From: a phage
Reading direction: 5' to 3' (one strand)
Assembly (NCBI GenBank): GCA_025043315.1
Contig: GCA_025043315.1_4324.1
DNA: 46,202 nucleotides
Both the position numbers and the translations under genes were made by a program. The notes under the pieces are model-generated. The model saw only the letters and a program-made list of their open reading frames with translations, had not been told where the DNA came from and made no database searches. Within the stretch, counting starts at the first letter, position 1. Each line of letters begins with the position of its first letter. This document shows positions 7,205 through 37,418 of this stretch, in pieces.

Positions 7205-7540
7205 TGGGGGCGTTACGCGAAATGGCACGCTAGCTAAGCTATAGCTCAATGTAGTTTCGTGTCGTGCGTGTAACGAGGTAAATTGGCTAGATGGCTCCAT
7301 AATGGCTAAATCTCACATAAAATAGCAACAATGTATTCTGATGGGAAAAAACATATAGATATCGCCGGGACCCCCGTTACACGACTTACATACAATAATA
7401 ATAATAATAATAATAATAATAGAAAGAAGATATATATATATATTAAGCACTTATAGCGTAAGTCAGGGCGTATCTGCGCGTAACTAGCGTAACGATAGGC
7501 GCTGGCTTACATCGCGCTACGTCGGTTACGCGTCAGCTCA
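7205..7540. promoter_or_regulatory. regulatory region A: GTTACG-type repeated boxes, (AAT)9 at 7394-7421, (AT)7 at 7430-7443; homologous to region 25515-25850
   Basis: shared blocks AAATGGCA, AGCTATAGCTCAATGTA, AGGGCGTAT, ACATCG-N-TCGGTTACG with region B. Confidence 0.55.
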
Positions 7541-7791: not shown

Positions 7792-8340
7792 ATGGATATG
7801 AAGATTGATAAAGATGAATTGCGTCACGAAAGCGCACTGATTGGTCGAGTTAGTGACCCTGAAATTTGGAATTCGATATTTGAATATGATGGGGAAAACC
7901 TAATAAGAAAAGCAACAACATCAAGTAGAGCGAGGGCTGGAGATGTTGTGGGGTGCCTTGATAGGGGTTACTTAACTGTCAGGTTCAATAAAAAGCTATA
8001 CTTTGTTCATAGGATCGTATGGGAAATGCATAATGGACCCATTCCTGATGGAATGTATATTGATCACATAAATCACAAGAGAGATGATAACGGATTGGTC
8101 AATTTAAGGCTTGTAACAAGAATTGAAAATCAAAGAAACATGTCAATTAGCAAAAGGAATAGTAGCGGCTTTGTTGGTGTCTCATGGAGTAAGGTGCACA
8201 ATAAGTGGGAGGTTAGAATAGGAGTGGGGAATGGCACGAAAGACATGTATTTAGGAAGATATGATGCCATTGATGAAGCAGTTGCAGTTAGAAAGAAAGC
8301 GGAGTTAGATATTGGGTATCACAAAAATCACGGAGAATAG
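7792..8340 (+). CDS. HNH homing endonuclease with AP2-like DNA-binding domain
   Basis: HNH-type motif IDHINHKRDDNGLVNLRLVTRIENQRN, then SSGFVGVSW...KWEVRI; paralog of 18683..19213. Confidence 0.75.
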   Translation: MDMKIDKDELRHESALIGRVSDPEIWNSIFEYDGENLIRKATTSSRARAGDVVGCLDRGYLTVRFNKKLYFVHRIVWEMHNGPIPDGMYIDHINHKRDDNGLVNLRLVTRIENQRNMSISKRNSSGFVGVSWSKVHNKWEVRIGVGNGTKDMYLGRYDAIDEAVAVRKKAELDIGYHKNHGE

Positions 8341-20196: not shown

Positions 20197-20221
20197 AACA
20201 ACAATATAGGAATTGATTATT

Positions 20222-22579
20222 ATGGCAATTTATGACTTAGGAACCGCATCGCTAGCCGCGAATGGCGAAGTGACTGGCGTAGGAACAACATGGAAGGCAC
20301 CACTTACACTGATCAGAGTTGGTGCAACCATCGTATTTAAAACTGAACCAGTACAGATTTACACCATCTCAGAAATCATCAGCGATACGCGGATTAATGT
20401 TTACAACCCTAATTCTGAAACTGTTCCTGCTGGCACTGGTTACGCGATTCTTGCGCACGACGGGATTACCGTCCAGGGTTTAGCTCAGGATGTTGCCGAA
20501 ACTTTGCGCTACTATCAGTCAAAAGAGACCTCAATTGAGTCATTAATTGAAATAATTGAAAACTCAGATATTGATGTTATTGATGGCAAAATTCAGGAAA
20601 TGCAGCAAATTCTAAGTAGCACAATGGCAGCCGAAGGATCAGCAAAATCCAGTAGTGATAGCGCTCTTGAATACAGTAATAAATCAATAAGCAGCGCTAA
20701 TGAGTCAAAGTCTGCAAGGGATGAGGCTGTAGCCGCTAAGAATTCGACAATTGAAGCGATTAATAACGCAGGAGATGCAGGTACACTAGTGACATTATCT
20801 GGTTCTAATGGGGCATCACTTATTGGAACCACTGATGGTTCAACCATTCAGGACGAGATTTCGAGTCTTAAAGCCAATGGGGCTTCAATTATTCGAACCA
20901 CTGATGGTTCAACCATTCAGGACGAGATTTCGAGTCTTAAAGCCAATGGGGCTTCAATTATTCGAACCACTGATGGTTCAACCATTCAGGACGAGATTTC
21001 GAGTCTTAAAGCCAATGCTGGAAATCTTAGGGCAGAACTAGCTTCTGATAATGGATTTAATATCGTCAATTACAAGAGGCCTGGTGTTAATGGTTCTGTA
21101 ATTAATTCGCTATCTACCAGGTACGCTTACACTTTAGACGCCGTGGCTGATTTCGGAGCTGACCCAACAGGTTCAACAGATAGTTACGAAGCATTGCAGG
21201 CGTGGGCGAACGCATGTGTTGCTGGGCCATGGGCTACAGGAACTATTAACGGAATATTCAGGATCAGTAAAACACTTGAGTTCGCCAATATCGCTGGATT
21301 GACCATTATTGCTAACTGTTACATATACCCAACTTTCGAATCTGGCGATGCTGTGATTCGCTATCGCAATGGCCAGGGTCTTCGTGTTTACGGTCGCTTT
21401 GAAGCGTCAGGTCAGAATAAGATAGGTATCCGTGCGGCTCATAAGATTTACACCGATAATGATAATGGTTTTAGCTTTTCCTACCTATATGGTGCTTGCG
21501 CTAGTGATGCTCTTACTGGTTTCGAGTTTGGTGACGCGGCTTATCCTAGCGGTCTAGTTTCCGAAATGTCACTGATTGGTGGTTACTCAGTGGGGTGCCC
21601 ATGCGCGGTTCGAGCTATAGGTTCCCAGTGCTATATTAACTTGGATGGATTCGATGCTGTGTCTGGAGGGGTGGGTGATCTTAGTTCCGTTACACAATAC
21701 ACCATTCATGTAAAGGGGGCTAATGTTAAAGTTCGTGGCGGTGAGATTCAGCACAATAATAATATCTACGGAGCTAGCATTCTCGTAGAGCCTCAAACTG
21801 ATCCTCTTTTCAATAATCAGTTCGGAAGCATTGAGGTTAATGCTTGCCATGTTGAGACAGCAGCGCAGCTGTGTTTTATTGCGAATCTTGATGGTGTGGA
21901 ATCACCTAAGAGTGATTTTACTAATATTTCATTTAAAGGACTGCGTGGTTATCACTCCCAGGATAACGGACCATTTATTAGCACGCACTCAACTGCCATT
22001 GAAAGTAACTATTCTGGAACCATTAGTTGGGCTAATATGTCTGGAATGCACTGCGGAGTCACCAGAACACAGCCTAACATACAGGCTGGGAGTCTATCTA
22101 GAGTGTACTACGACGAGACATATGGTGCTGGGTTCCGTAAAGGATTACAGTCTGTATCTGGCGGTATATTGCACTTTAGTCGTAGGCCTGTATGTATAGC
22201 TCAGAACACAGGTGGACAGACTCTTACTGCAGCCACTGACAAAATAATTTGGGGGGGGCTGGTTTCAACTGACGACTCTTACCGCTGGAACGCACAGTAC
22301 AGCGGGGGTACATTTACAGTGCCAGCGGGTGGTTTAAAGGATGTTCACGTTCATGCTGTAGCAAGGATTGACACAAATGTTCAGCTTAGTATGACTGTTT
22401 TCGTAGACGGCGGCGCACAAAGTTTGGCTATACCCAGCGCGGGAGCGGCTGAGCTTAATGCATTCCTTGGTGATTTAGATGCGGGTAGAGAAATTGAGAT
22501 CAGAGCTAGTGTAAGTCCAGGTTCGGCTATTTTGAATGGAGGTTATTTTGAGAGGATGACTATTACTGCATCAAGGTAG
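20222..22579 (+). CDS. tail fibre / tailspike protein with three tandem 23-aa repeats
   Basis: 785 aa from ATG at 20222 (track 788 aa from TTG 20213); repeats GASxIxTTDGSTIQDEISSLKAN x3; C-terminal Gly/Asn-rich region suggestive of a beta-helix. Confidence 0.7.
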   Translation: MAIYDLGTASLAANGEVTGVGTTWKAPLTLIRVGATIVFKTEPVQIYTISEIISDTRINVYNPNSETVPAGTGYAILAHDGITVQGLAQDVAETLRYYQSKETSIESLIEIIENSDIDVIDGKIQEMQQILSSTMAAEGSAKSSSDSALEYSNKSISSANESKSARDEAVAAKNSTIEAINNAGDAGTLVTLSGSNGASLIGTTDGSTIQDEISSLKANGASIIRTTDGSTIQDEISSLKANGASIIRTTDGSTIQDEISSLKANAGNLRAELASDNGFNIVNYKRPGVNGSVINSLSTRYAYTLDAVADFGADPTGSTDSYEALQAWANACVAGPWATGTINGIFRISKTLEFANIAGLTIIANCYIYPTFESGDAVIRYRNGQGLRVYGRFEASGQNKIGIRAAHKIYTDNDNGFSFSYLYGACASDALTGFEFGDAAYPSGLVSEMSLIGGYSVGCPCAVRAIGSQCYINLDGFDAVSGGVGDLSSVTQYTIHVKGANVKVRGGEIQHNNNIYGASILVEPQTDPLFNNQFGSIEVNACHVETAAQLCFIANLDGVESPKSDFTNISFKGLRGYHSQDNGPFISTHSTAIESNYSGTISWANMSGMHCGVTRTQPNIQAGSLSRVYYDETYGAGFRKGLQSVSGGILHFSRRPVCIAQNTGGQTLTAATDKIIWGGLVSTDDSYRWNAQYSGGTFTVPAGGLKDVHVHAVARIDTNVQLSMTVFVDGGAQSLAIPSAGAAELNAFLGDLDAGREIEIRASVSPGSAILNGGYFERMTITASR
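20811..21017 (+). repeat. 3 x 69-bp in-frame tandem repeat inside tail fibre gene
   Basis: units 2 and 3 identical, unit 1 differs at a few positions. Confidence 0.9.
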
Positions 22580-22603
22580 TATTTAATATTCATTATTTTG
22601 TCA

Positions 22604-22635
22604 TAAAAAAAGCCCCGAAAGGGGCTTTATCTTTT
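22604..22635. terminator. bidirectional rho-independent terminator (AGCCCC-GAAA-GGGGCT)
   Basis: hairpin 22611-22626 flanked by A-run and T-run; between convergent tail fibre and ssb genes. Confidence 0.7.
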
Positions 22636-22636
22636 A

Positions 22637-23053
22637 TTAGAATGGGATATCGTCGTTGAATTGACTTTGCTGCTGAGGTTTTTGTTGCTGAGTTTTCTGT
22701 TGTTGTCTTTGCTGCTGCTGTTGTGGCACTGAATCACCACGCTGACTAAACTCAAGTCGAGGGTTATTCATATTAACTGTAACGTAAGTATTGCCATCTT
22801 TATCGCGGACATCAACCGACAAACTCTCGGCGCTTAGGCTGACAACTTTACCTTCCTGAAATGCTTCGTTATACCAATCCAGCATCGACTCTTTGGCGAA
22901 AAGTACTGCGCGGTAGTTTGTGTACTTAGTTTGACCATCTTTATCCTTGTATCGCTCGCTCAAATCAACTGCAAACATCTTCCAGTTACCATTTTCGTTT
23001 GCGCCTTCTTTAGTGAACGGAGCGCGGCGAATCTGACCAGTAATTACGTGCAT
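22637..23053 (-). CDS. ssb: single-stranded DNA-binding protein
   Basis: Gln-rich linker (QQQQQRQQQKTQQQKPQQQSQ) and acidic tip FNDDIPF as in bacterial SSBs. Confidence 0.75.
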   Translation of the reverse strand: MHVITGQIRRAPFTKEGANENGNWKMFAVDLSERYKDKDGQTKYTNYRAVLFAKESMLDWYNEAFQEGKVVSLSAESLSVDVRDKDGNTYVTVNMNNPRLEFSQRGDSVPQQQQQRQQQKTQQQKPQQQSQFNDDIPF

Positions 23054-23095: not shown

Positions 23096-23746
23096 TTAGA
23101 ATGTGTCGATTTGTTGTGATTCTACTTCAATCTTTTCTTCATGACTACTTTTTTCCGCGACTTTCTTTGGTGTTGCTGGGTTGAATCCAGTTGCTGCGTT
23201 TGCTTCGATTTCTGCTTTTCGCTCGATAATGTGAGGTTCAAAAACCTTCCACCCCGCTGCGTCAAGTGATTGCTTGGCTTCTTTCCAAACATTACGAAGC
23301 TCATCAAGGGTGTTGCATTTCTCGAGCTCTCTCTTGAAGTCCTTAACACCTTTCGCTGCGAGATTTCCATCATCATCTGCCTGGCTAAGTCCTAGTGCTG
23401 CTGTGATGCCGTAACGTCGCGCGTATGTAAGTGCAGAACCGTAACCTTGAGCGTCTTGCTTGCTGATTGGGACAATCATTAAGAAGCTAACCCACTCCCC
23501 TGATTCGGCGTGGAATAGCTTTGTCTCAACCTTCATGCGATTCGTTTGTTCATAATCAAGCACACTTTGGAACATAACAAGACCGCACTCATCTAAACCT
23601 GGCTCGACAGCCGCCAAAACGTCTTCTAAGGTAGCGTATTTATTCTTAAGGTGTGAGTTCTGCTTAGACTTTTCAGCCTTCGCAAATAGCGATTTAGCAG
23701 TGTGCAGGGCGTTTAAAATTGATTTGCATGATTCTGAAATTTGCAT
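23096..23746 (-). CDS. Erf-family single-strand annealing protein
   Basis: motif GSALTYARRYG; adjacent to ssb and exonuclease. Confidence 0.6.
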   Translation of the reverse strand: MQISESCKSILNALHTAKSLFAKAEKSKQNSHLKNKYATLEDVLAAVEPGLDECGLVMFQSVLDYEQTNRMKVETKLFHAESGEWVSFLMIVPISKQDAQGYGSALTYARRYGITAALGLSQADDDGNLAAKGVKDFKRELEKCNTLDELRNVWKEAKQSLDAAGWKVFEPHIIERKAEIEANAATGFNPATPKKVAEKSSHEEKIEVESQQIDTF

Positions 23747-23775
23747 CTTTAACCTCGTTCGTTGTTGATGGGGTA

Positions 23776-23818
23776 ATCATACCCCACCTTTTAATTTTGT
23801 ATTTAGCAATTCGTGCTA
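23776..23818 (-). promoter_or_regulatory. palindromic promoter module (TAGCAATTCGTGCTA 23804-23818; TATGAT 23776-23781)
   Basis: 22-bp spacer; leader TACCCCATCAACAACGAACGAGG. Confidence 0.6.
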
Positions 23819-23819
23819 T

Positions 23820-24785
23820 TTAGATTTCTTTGTATTGTTTTAGAGCCCAATCAGGAACTAATAGCTCTTGCTCTGTTATGCCGTTCGAGTACCCAGGCCA
23901 AATATCCAACTCCTTGCACTTCTTGTAGGTCGCCAGCGCCTCTAAATATTGAAGCCTTCCGATTCTGAGTTGCTCATCTGTCAAGGTGTACAGCATTGGT
24001 AGATATGGCTCCACCTTCTCCTGCGCAAGCAATCCTACAACAACCTTTCGCTTCTCGCTGAATGCCTTCACAAACAGATCTCTCTGAAGAGCCATTTTTG
24101 CAAGGTATCCGTGAGAGAATGCTGACTTACCAAATCCTTCCGGGCTTGCGTCAGCTGTTGTTTTATAATCTGTGATCCGAACGACTCCATCAACAACGTC
24201 AACGTGGTCAATTCGAATCTTCACTCCGACACCAAGAATCTCACCGAATATTGATAGCTCTTTTTGTGCTGTCTCACTATTCACGATTGCATTATATGCC
24301 GGTATATTGCAAAGAACCTCACGCATAGCCACAACTTTATCGTAGTCTGCTGCGCTAACTAGCTCCTTGCCCTCTACAAGAGCCTGTGCGCTCTCCTGCT
24401 GCTCAATTAGCCATTTAACATCCCAATCCTCACCGGAGCGATACATCATCTCTACGAGCTCGATATACCCCTTCCCTGACGTGCCAGCTACGCCAACTTT
24501 TTTAAGTGCTGCCGATAATCCGGCCTGGCTTGTAATTAATCCTTCAATCGCGTCAAGGTCTGTAGCTCGAAGGTATTCTTTATCAAACATGTCACCTTCG
24601 AGGATGTACGTGTGTGACAGGGTTCCAAACTTAAGCGCCTTGCTATTATTGTTGCGCTGCTTGAACTTCCACTTAGCTGGTGAACCCTGGATAATCTCGA
24701 CAAGTGAGGAGCCTGAGATGTGGTCAGTTTCAGCGTGGTAAGCCTCGTTGCTTAGCTCCTCTCTCGTAAAAACTTTAAAAGTCAT
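23820..24785 (-). CDS. putative PD-(D/E)XK recombination exonuclease
   Basis: 321 aa; nuclease-like RIDHVDVVDGVVRITDYKTT; upstream partner of Erf. Confidence 0.5.
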   Translation of the reverse strand: MTFKVFTREELSNEAYHAETDHISGSSLVEIIQGSPAKWKFKQRNNNSKALKFGTLSHTYILEGDMFDKEYLRATDLDAIEGLITSQAGLSAALKKVGVAGTSGKGYIELVEMMYRSGEDWDVKWLIEQQESAQALVEGKELVSAADYDKVVAMREVLCNIPAYNAIVNSETAQKELSIFGEILGVGVKIRIDHVDVVDGVVRITDYKTTADASPEGFGKSAFSHGYLAKMALQRDLFVKAFSEKRKVVVGLLAQEKVEPYLPMLYTLTDEQLRIGRLQYLEALATYKKCKELDIWPGYSNGITEQELLVPDWALKQYKEI

Positions 24786-34442: not shown

Positions 34443-37418
34443 TTAGTTGAATCCACGAAGGTAAGCATACGCCCTGCCGCCCTGCTGGAAAGACTGAGCA
34501 ATCTCTTCCGCTACGATTGCCTTGACGCCGTTTTGCAATGCTTTAGCTTGCTCTGGGTCGCTACCCACCCCCGAGTTTACGTTAACAGTGATTCCGCTAA
34601 CATTAACATCCGTTCCACCAGAAACCAAACCGCCACTTGCATAACCAGATGGACCACCAACCGCGCCGCCGTTTGCATATCCCTTCATTAGAGCGTAAAG
34701 GTTTTTTACGCCAATTCTGCTAGTCGCTTCTTTTGTGAATACGAACTCACCGCGGTGTACCGTTCCTGCTGGCTGATACTTACCACCATCACCAGTATAG
34801 CCGCCGCCAGCAAAACCTATGGCAGATGCAATTGAACCAATAGCACCACCTGTGCCACCGAAGCTACTTAAGCTAGACTCGATAGCCTTGACAACAAGAA
34901 GCTGAGTTGCAATCTTGGCGATCTGCTTAAGAATGTTAACCGTGAATTCCCTGAAATTAGTCTCGCCAGTTGTTACAAGGTTTGTAATCTGGTCGGTAAT
35001 ACCTTCAAAGACCGTTGTGGTTAAACTTCCAGCAATTGAGAATGCATCCGTCGCGCTCTCAGCCCAATTAGCAAAGGATTGATTCACGCCAGCGAGCCAG
35101 TTTTCACGTAGCGCATCCTCCTGAGCATAAAAGTTACGTCTTGCTTCGAGAAGTTGCGCGAAATCTACGTCATCAAGAGAACCACCAGCATTAACCTGAT
35201 TGGACTGAAGAGCCTGAATCTCTTTGGCTCTCTGCTGCTCCCGAGAAGACAGGCCAGCACCCAAATTAATATTGCTTGCCTCATTGTTAATCTGAAGAAT
35301 CTTCTTGCGGTTATCTTCAGCTAACTTATTGGCACGCTCCTGCAAAACAATCTGATCGCCTAACTCAGCTTTCTGCCTTGCGAGTGCAAGAACTTTATCC
35401 TTCTCAATGAGAAGTCTTGCTTGCTCTTTGGTAATTGAGCCATCAATTTGCCTCTGCTCAAGAATCTGGAATTTAGCCTCTTCCTGAAGGTACTGCTTGC
35501 GCTCATTACTTATTACTGCGCCAATATCCCTGTTTTCCTGAAGTACCTTTAGTTGAGCCTGAAGTGCCAGCACGCCAGATTCGTAACCAATTGTAAGGTC
35601 TCTTTGCTCTTTAGCCCTACCATTTTCTTCTTTCCTGCTCTTCTTGATCGCATCAAGTTCATCCTGAAGCGCCTTCTTCCTTTTTGCAAACTCCTCATCA
35701 GTACCTGACTGCTCATTGGAATTCTGATTTTCCCTGCGTGTAACGTAACCAAGTTCTCCTTCTCTGATTCTGGCATCTCTCTCCCTGATAGACTTCTCTA
35801 GCTCAAGGTTTTGCTTCTTGGCGGCATCGATAATCTTCTGCTGACTCTTGATTACATCATCACCGACACCATCAAGGCCTGGGATATTCTGCAATGCCTG
35901 AGTTGCACTAATTACAAACTCACCAATCAGCGCGTCACCTTGGTTAATGAAGACCTTAATCTGTTCAATTGTCCCGGCTATTACATCAACAAACAGGTTT
36001 AGAGCCCCAACCGTTCTGCGACTAATTGCATCCCATACATCAGATATGTACTTCCTGAAGTCACTCCAGGCCAATTCAAGAGGAGTAAGCTGGGCTGCAA
36101 TATCGTTAAGGTTTGCTTCCTGTGATTTGCTAAATATATCAATGGCAGCAGTTACGGCTTCAACCTCACCCCTAGTCTCTCTCAATCTTTCAATTGTTGT
36201 TAACTGCCCCTGTGTAAGGAAGTTAAACCTCTTGTCTAAATCAGCAAGTCCTTGAATTGGGTCGCTCGCAATCTGGTTATAGTAACCAGTAATCTCCTTC
36301 GCATCCCTACCTGTCAACTGCGCCCATCTGGCGGTTGATTTGGTAATCTTGTCAATCTGAGTCAGCGTAAGGTTCCCTTGCTCAATAAGGCTTGTTGCGA
36401 TGCTAGTCACAAGTCCTCTTGTAGCACCAGTAGCGTCAGAAACAGAGCTAACCAACTCTCTAACCTGCGAGATTGATGCGATTGTAGAGTTGTTGGAGAA
36501 TGCAATCGCAGAATTTAATGCTCTGAATTCACTCTCTGCCTGAGCGGCACCGATACCGAGAGCAACAAGTGCCCCACCCAAAACGCCAACAGCAACATTG
36601 AATGGATTTAAGGCTGCGAGCGCGAATCTAAAGGTGTTACCAATACCTCCAAATGCATCCTTAATTTGTCCGCCTTGCTGAATTGCAATAAGCCAAATCG
36701 GAATGCCGCCAGCAAGTGATGTCCCAATATCTGTAATCTGCGCTGGCAATTGAGAGATTGCAGCCTTGTATTGACCTGCGCTTAATCCTGATTTCTGAAA
36801 AGCCTTACTCTGAGCAATTAACTGGGTGTTTGCCTTCTTTGATGCATCGGCGATTCTGTCAATAATAGGCGCCGCCTGAGAACTTACGCCAAGCTGAGCA
36901 GCTTGTAGCTTAAGATACTCCTCACGCGTCAATGTTGCCGCTTGAGCCTGACGCTCAAGTGATGCAATGAACCTATCCGCTTCAACCTTTGCCTTTGCCT
37001 TATCCTTTGCAGCTTGCGCTGCCGCTCTACCCTCTTCAGTTAGCGCCGCACGTGAACGAGCAAGTTTTGCGTTCTGCGTTTCAAGAGCCTCACCTAAGCG
37101 GAAAAACTCCTCATCAGGAACAACGCCAGCTGCGAATGCCTTATCAAGACCTACTGCCGCCTCCTGAAGTTTACGGAATTTTGCAGCCGTTGGGTCGATA
37201 GCTGTTTGCAACTTAGCCAGAGATGCTTTCTGCTCAGCCAGTGCGCGAGCCGTATCTCTAGCCTGGGTTTTAGCAACCTGCTCGGCATTTACGAACTCAC
37301 TAATCCCAGAGGCAGCCTGTTGGTTGGCCTGTCTGAACTTTTGCAGGGATTGCGTGCCCCTATCGACTTGCGAGACGTCTACGGCTAGTGTGATTCCGGC
37401 TAATTCATTTGTTGCCAT
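34443..37418 (-). CDS. tail tape measure protein
   Basis: 991 aa, long Ala/Gln/Glu-rich coiled-coil region, Gly-rich C-terminus; follows G/GT chaperones. Confidence 0.85.

Follow-up and report, generated by a model that had tools for sequence, protein, structure and literature searches.

In SSBs a disordered, hypervariable linker joins the OB fold to a conserved C-terminal tip, which in the Escherichia coli protein docks many partner proteins; linkers rich in Pro, Gln and Gly favour cooperativity, while charged linkers diminish it (bioRxiv 10.1101/2021.08.19.456831). The amides of the linker have been proposed to drive tail-tail interactions, which an acidic tail abolishes (bioRxiv 10.1101/2022.01.17.476650), and studies of E. 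coli SSB indicate that these contacts depend mainly on Gly backbone amides and the aromatic W136 rather than on Gln (10.1101/2022.01.17.476650; PMC12143593). The E. coli linker comprises 56 residues, with 17 Gly, 11 Gln (20%), 16% Pro, W136 and F148 (PMC12143593). Phages encode SSBs of their own: in phage HK620, the annealase cannot be loaded on DNA coated with SSB unless the SSB tail has its last six residues (PMC5928155).

We analysed the tail of an SSB encoded in a 46,202-nt stretch of phage DNA (contig GCA_025043315.1_4324.1, hereafter the window), which is the genome of a T1-like phage of the Drexlerviridae, an Rtp-like coliphage; its closest GenBank relatives are Rtp-like Drexlerviridae with ~85% DNA identity. 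The Gln-rich tract in this tail is probably the disordered linker of a phage-encoded, bacterial-type SSB of a T1-like coliphage, acting as the tether of a host-like tip and drifting under a constraint on its composition. Hypervariable, composition-constrained disordered linkers are already known for bacterial-type SSBs, and the one described here is a short, Gly-free, aromatic-free and extremely Gln-rich version. The features of the locus are as follows.

22637..23053, minus strand: SSB gene, 138 aa plus a TAA stop (ORF, PHROG 44, identity to P0001)
22736..23053, minus strand: OB-fold core, presumed to bind DNA, residues 1-106, with FSQRG at its C-terminal end
22661..22735, minus strand: disordered linker of 25 residues (107-131), DSVP followed by QQQQQRQQQKTQQQKPQQQSQ (sequence, pLDDT, variability in relatives)
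22661-22723, minus strand: Gln tract QQQQQRQQQKTQQQKPQQQSQ, residues 111-131, 15 Q in 21
22666..22702, minus strand: 15-nt periodicity, 2.5 copies, within the tract, as QQQK[T/P]/QQQSQ units (Tandem Repeats Finder score 53, 86% matches)
22640..22660, minus strand: C-terminal tip FNDDIPF, SSB-Ct-like (sequence; E. coli FDDDIPF)
23096..23746, minus strand: Erf-family single-strand annealing protein (Pfam ERF E=1.2e-27; PHROG 155 E=5e-48)
23820..24785, minus strand: RecE-like PD-(D/E)XK exonuclease (Pfam DUF3799 E=8e-22; PHROG 412 'exonuclease VIII' E=1e-98)
22609..22628, no strand assigned: bidirectional intrinsic terminator of the SSB gene and the convergent tail-fibre gene (8-bp stem, 5 GC pairs, T runs on both strands)

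An earlier note, made from the letters of the window, had described the tract as the tail of an SSB, and this identification held at the level of function and fold. Over its full length (residues 1-138) the protein matched PHROG 44, 'single strand DNA binding protein', with E=4.5e-28, and one entry of a public protein collection (P0001) is 100% identical to it. A Pfam search with the full-length 138-aa protein gave no SSB match at E<=1; against the core alone PF00436 scored 13.2 bits, below its curated cut-off of 26, and just seven of 40 diverse family members matched that model (best E=6e-4). A profile built from the 40 family cores reached the mitochondrial SSB Rim1 in the PDB over nearly the whole domain (E=2.5e-4), and did so only as a family profile, since searching PDB chains with the single sequence returned nothing significant (best E=0.098, an unrelated chain; Rim1 at 0.43). 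In the AlphaFold model, computed from an alignment with 60 relatives, the core has a pLDDT of 74-86, which is moderate confidence, and the strand-strand-strand-helix-strand-strand order of an OB fold; the best 50 Foldseek matches in the PDB were all bacterial or mitochondrial SSBs (top E=5e-4). Together, the model, the Foldseek matches and the Rim1 profile support an OB-fold core of the SSB type moderately rather than strongly. Bacterial and mitochondrial SSBs and PriB dominated the fold searches, which returned no structure of the T7 gp2.5 type, and that fold was rejected for this protein. We accept the protein as an SSB by function and fold, in a divergent phage-specific branch outside Pfam-level membership.

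The position of the gene fits this assignment. The exonuclease is the first gene of a recombination module, the Erf gene lies immediately upstream of the SSB gene in the same operon, and the order exonuclease-Erf-SSB recurs in Drexlerviridae, in a Vibrio phage and in Edwardsiella phage GF-2. The arrangement resembles that of phage HK620, where an SSB gene also sits beside the gene of a single-strand annealing protein, although the annealase there is Sak4 rather than Erf and the tip is NDYPPF rather than FNDDIPF. T7 gp2.5, another SSB of phage origin, also combines an OB fold with an acidic C-terminal tail whose last residue is Phe, but the tip in the window copies the host motif and not that of T7; some database records name relatives of the window SSB 'helix-destabilizing', the term used for gp2.5. 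The window encodes a primase and helicases, and no polymerase was found in a scan of five of the six ORFs of at least 500 aa (all but 34443..37418); a host-like tip makes sense if the phage relies on the host replisome.

Several other observations concern the genome around the SSB gene. In relatives, an additional ORF of ~150-170 aa separates the exonuclease gene from the Erf gene (L001:158-807, L023:100-808), where the window has a gap of only 73 nt (23747-23819). On the other side, DNA homology with essentially all fetched relatives ends in the terminator just past the SSB stop (22602-22607), and the 3' part of the convergent tail-fibre gene, which ends at 22579, is not common to the relatives, which points to a module boundary for host-range exchange at 22602-22628. 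The tail-fibre gene (20213..22579) contains a 69-nt tandem repeat at 20807-21017 (3.1 copies, 97% matches) that encodes three copies of a 23-aa unit (NGASIIRTTDGSTIQDEISSLKA), as well as a G8 homopolymer at 22251-22258 that may be a frameshift-prone site or a sequencing hazard. Farther away lie a perfect (AAT)9.3 trinucleotide repeat (7394-7421) and, among the replication genes, a free-standing HNH endonuclease gene (7792-8340, plus strand; PHROG 99, E=1e-60). The single phage tRNA (2729-2805, minus strand) is a tRNA-Arg with anticodon TCT, which reads AGA, joint commonest Arg codon with CGC in the long open frames of the window (110 each) and the codon of R116 in the linker; a link between this tRNA and the Gln tract was rejected, the tRNA being tRNA-Arg(TCT) and not tRNA-Gln.

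The Gln-rich linker peptide reported earlier is present exactly as claimed, on the minus strand at the 3' end of the ORF 22637..23053: in frame 2 the reverse complement of 22637-22760 translates to RLEFSQRGDSVPQQQQQRQQQKTQQQKPQQQSQFNDDIPF followed by the stop. That interval also takes in the end of the folded core and, at 22637-22639, the stop codon, and the residues FN separate the Gln tract from DDIPF. Gln makes up 60% of the linker and 71% of the tract, where it is encoded by 7 CAG and 8 CAA codons with (CAG)3 as the longest run of a single codon; the longest Gln run is five, and the linker holds no Gly, no aromatic residue and no PxxP motif. Chance is excluded as a source of the tract, since with a background Gln frequency of 4.0% in the long open frames of the window the probability of at least 15 Gln in 21 residues is 5e-17 (~5e-12 when corrected for all six-frame windows), and a six-frame scan of the window found no other 21-residue stretch reaching even 8 Gln. 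At 21 residues, with no Gln run above five in the window, the tract was not accepted as a polyQ or prion-like Q/N-rich domain. The linker is predicted to be disordered, with pLDDT below 50 across residues 97-138 of the AlphaFold model, and the tip FNDDIPF, which differs at one position from E. coli FDDDIPF, directly precedes the TAA and so ends in a free terminal Phe.

The E. coli protein offers the nearest comparison for this tail. Both have an OB core, a low-complexity disordered linker in which Gln and Pro are prominent, and an acidic-hydrophobic tip ending in DDIPF (MDFDDDIPF in E. coli), and in both the tip stays conserved among relatives whose linkers are hypervariable. The window core is, however, only remotely related to that of E. 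coli by sequence, and the window linker, with roughly half the length and three times the share of Gln, has neither Gly nor aromatics. The description of the linker as unusually Gln-rich thus stands against SSBs generally, with 20% Gln in the E. coli linker and roughly 30% in the wider phage family, but not within its own clade, where the median is 65%.

That wider family is small, since HMMER, run exhaustively with the core against 1.84 billion representatives, yielded only 74 clusters at E<=0.001. Its tails, counted up to the tip, are 13-111 residues long and close almost always with a DDIPF-like tip, and Gln is their commonest residue, typically at 20-50%, accompanied by Gly, Pro, Ala, Asn or Ser. 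The PHROG 44 relatives in other Drexlerviridae and related phages (Webervirus Domnhall gp24, JohannLBurckhardt bas11_0029, Vibrio phage pYD38-B) share a homologous core, the position after exonuclease and Erf, and the tip seen in the window, and differ in having longer linkers (about 25-110 aa) with Gln around 20-50% plus Gly, Pro, Ala and Asn. The linkers of twelve among 40 diverse family members contain GWGxPQQP (e.g. L004:1501-1962, L005:1495-1971, P0121, P0122, P0145, P0155, P0165), a motif that an alignment to PDB chain 7f2n shows in the linker of enterobacterial SSB too, and that is found in the E. coli linker sequence printed in bioRxiv 10.1101/2021.08.19.456831; several of these members end in NEPPMDFDDDIPF, like the host protein. 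These shared sequences suggest that the tails with the motif were acquired from, or converged on, host ssb, and the clade of the window has lost GWGxPQQP, its linkers being almost pure Gln.

A separate observation concerns SSBs, in some relatives and in unrelated phages, that continue past DDIPF with a conserved 14-15-aa extension (A-x-x-GLQY-x-x-x-x-I-x-x-L, e.g. ASLGLQYGKHRIYAL), which is absent from the window (L023:1900-2377, also L024-L026; L027:560-619; L028:901-1384; L029:901-1573). Its coding sequence runs into the beginning of an endonuclease ORF (phrog_2340, E=5e-39), and at L027 it is present with a terminator in place of the endonuclease. The same junction occurs in an unrelated Vequintavirus protein ending in YDFCDDIPF, and 216 records of phages of Escherichia, Vibrio, Klebsiella, Salmonella and other hosts contain it according to tblastn, the usual annotation being SSB followed by endonuclease VII or homing endonuclease. 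By sequence this looks like a homing-endonuclease cassette placed at the conserved coding sequence of the SSB tip, which would bury the tip Phe so that it is no longer C-terminal; a text search of the available literature found no description of such a junction.

Variation in the linker itself was followed among close relatives, all Rtp-like Drexlerviridae, with 120 cluster representatives (81-100% identity) from a search of a 5.8-billion-protein collection for the protein-level analysis. The core is 106 aa long in 119 of these 120, with a mean pairwise identity of ~93%, while the stretch that links FSQRG to the tip occurs in all lengths between 21 and 31 aa; linker length is therefore not invariant across relatives although core length is fixed. 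There are 104 distinct linkers, the Gln share varies from 46 to 74% (median 65%), and Gln runs reach 11 residues among the proteins and 14 among the DNA sequences. The tip always reads F-x-x-(x)-I-P-F (FNDDIPF in 55 of 120), no tail contains Trp (0/120), and the reading frame, tip and stop codon are kept in all relatives.

What the linkers hold in common is their composition. Across the tracts of the 104 distinct linkers (2348 residues) Q accounts for 74.6%, P for 7.8%, R for 5.2%, N for 3.1%, K for 3.0% and H for 2.1%. Six residues lie one nucleotide away from CAA or CAG, and among them K, R, P and H occur 425 times whereas E and L occur just 7 times; acidic and hydrophobic residues are almost absent. 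Pro occupies position -6 from the linker end in 97 of the 104, and the conserved C-terminal element is in fact PQQQxQF[N/D/E]DDIPF. Scans of IMG/VR and of metagenomes for further DNA copies gave 8 loci each, and the DNA-level analysis rests on 19 sequences. In 18 of them (153 pairs), codon positions 1 and 2 of the core are 94.6% identical and position 3 is 67.7% identical, and the tail DNA is 69.3% identical, so that the tail changes about as fast as synonymous sites do. What these sequences preserve is the composition, the want of negative charge, a rough length and a single proline, and the sequence and exact length drift.

That the length of the repeat DNA could change by slippage had also been proposed, and over evolutionary time the relatives agree with this. 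Eight pairs of linkers differ by one clean in-frame indel alone, with cores 92-100% identical, and the indels are +Q (three pairs), +QQ, +PQ (two pairs, beside an existing PQ), +RQQQK and +R. At the DNA level, L009 and L010 differ by a 9-nt indel within a CAR run, and L011 carries a perfect 18-nt tandem duplication, CAACCTCAGCGGCAACAG twice. The clean indels, the 18-nt duplication and the 15-nt periodicity fit replication slippage or unequal exchange between short repeats as the mutational source. Rapid switching, on the other hand, is not borne out: the window has at most three identical codons in a row, and in the 19 DNA relatives such runs are 2-6 long, even with Gln runs of up to 14. CAG accounts for 51% of the Gln codons of the linkers, compared with 71% in the long ORFs; whether codon interruption reflects selection against pure repeats was considered and no conclusion was drawn, the sequences being related and their run lengths like those of random mixing.

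Recombination also contributes to the diversity of the linkers, as judged from one pair. The SSB core of metagenome contig MAUZ01000002 (L015:601-918) is 96.9% identical in DNA to that of the window (22736-23053), but the tail, which is 24 nt longer, shares only 61% of its positions, against an average identity of 86% in the surrounding region. This contrast points to fine-scale mosaicism around the junction of core and linker, and recombination between phages, not slippage, could be behind part of the diversity. A mosaic junction within the repeat was rejected, the strong boundary with relatives being the terminator (22602-22607).

Read as a tether, the tail would work as follows. The OB core would coat the ssDNA that arises during phage replication and exonuclease/Erf recombination, and the linker, flexible, uncharged to slightly basic and rich in amides, would present FNDDIPF, which nearly duplicates the tip of host SSB. 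This motif would then dock host SSB-interacting proteins of the replisome and of repair, and probably the phage's own annealase Erf, for which the tail-dependent loading of the HK620 annealase provides a model by analogy. If the E. coli linker is a guide, the tether may in addition promote contacts between adjacent SSBs; however, this role in cooperativity may not carry over, since the window linker lacks both Gly and the aromatic residue to which the E. coli studies point as main drivers. Selection would act on composition (Gln-rich, with some Pro, Arg, Lys and His, almost no Asp, Glu or hydrophobics, and a Pro six residues before the tip) and on approximate length rather than on exact sequence, and in-frame slippage and small CAA/CAG tandem duplications would consequently be tolerated, letting the linker drift between ~21 and 31 residues. 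The near-absence of Asp and Glu fits a tract that must not push away DNA or the tails next to it, or that must leave the DNA-binding surface free for the acidic tip.

Among the alternatives, the one that survives best, though still unlikely, differs from the tether only in emphasis and overlaps with it: the tract would be an active self-association module, in which Gln amides drive SSB-SSB clustering or condensates on ssDNA, tuned by length, and concentrate the replication and recombination machinery. The strong conservation of composition despite turnover of sequence and the exclusion of acidic residues would be expected of such a module, and both condensation and non-nearest-neighbour cooperativity of E. 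coli SSB depend on its linker, with amide-amide contacts proposed as the driving force (10.1101/2022.01.17.476650; PMC12143593). The same work, however, gives the main role to Gly and W136, and finds that the Plasmodium SSB tail, with many N and Q, does not condense (10.1101/2022.01.17.476650; PMC12143593); the window linker is short (25 aa), without Gly or aromatics and with no Gln run above five, and Trp is missing from every one of the 120 tails.

Less probable again is that the Gly-free, Trp-free, near-pure-Gln linker is a derived design that changes how phage and host SSBs mix on ssDNA, its length serving as an evolvable tuning knob. If this were true, the derived linker could keep the phage SSB out of host-SSB assemblies while the mimicked tip still captured host partners.

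We give slightly less credence still to the possibility that the diversity of the linkers is itself adaptive, through an arms race with host defences that sense phage SSBs or through competition with host SSB for partners. The number of distinct linkers and the decoupling of core and tail between the window and L015 could be read in this way, and phage SSBs are known to trigger Retron-Eco8 (10.1101/2025.11.11.687766), but the composition does not diversify and the tail DNA diverges about as fast as third codon positions of the core, as near-neutral drift predicts. Moreover, the SSB sensed by Retron-Eco8 in that study was T7 gp2.5, which is unrelated, and sensing depended on its OB fold but did not require its C-terminal tail (10.1101/2025.11.11.687766); the lead was rejected as bearing neither on the family of the window SSB nor on its tail.

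Finally, a fast-switching simple-sequence (contingency) locus, or a non-coding role in another frame, on the other strand or as an RNA element, has next to no probability despite the repetitive CAR DNA and its Tandem Repeats Finder period of 15: the triplet unit never costs the frame, CAA and CAG are mixed so that the phase-variable candidate was rejected for want of a long uninterrupted repeat and with frame and tip intact in relatives, no plus-strand ORF spans the tract and the sole ORF in another frame is a 42-aa low-complexity artefact, and an Rfam search over the tract gave no match.

For the tether under compositional constraint, which we prefer, the significance is modest: taken alone the tract has little importance, being a normal part of a known architecture, here with an extreme composition, and it implies no new principle. 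It is nevertheless a clean natural example of selection holding composition (amide-rich and non-acidic), approximate length and one proline, while sequence and exact length drift about as fast as synonymous sites. More than 100 natural variants of the linker on a near-constant core make up a ready-made series for tests of SSB linker function, and a phage SSB that copies the host tip and is encoded beside Erf is relevant to the design of recombineering tools.
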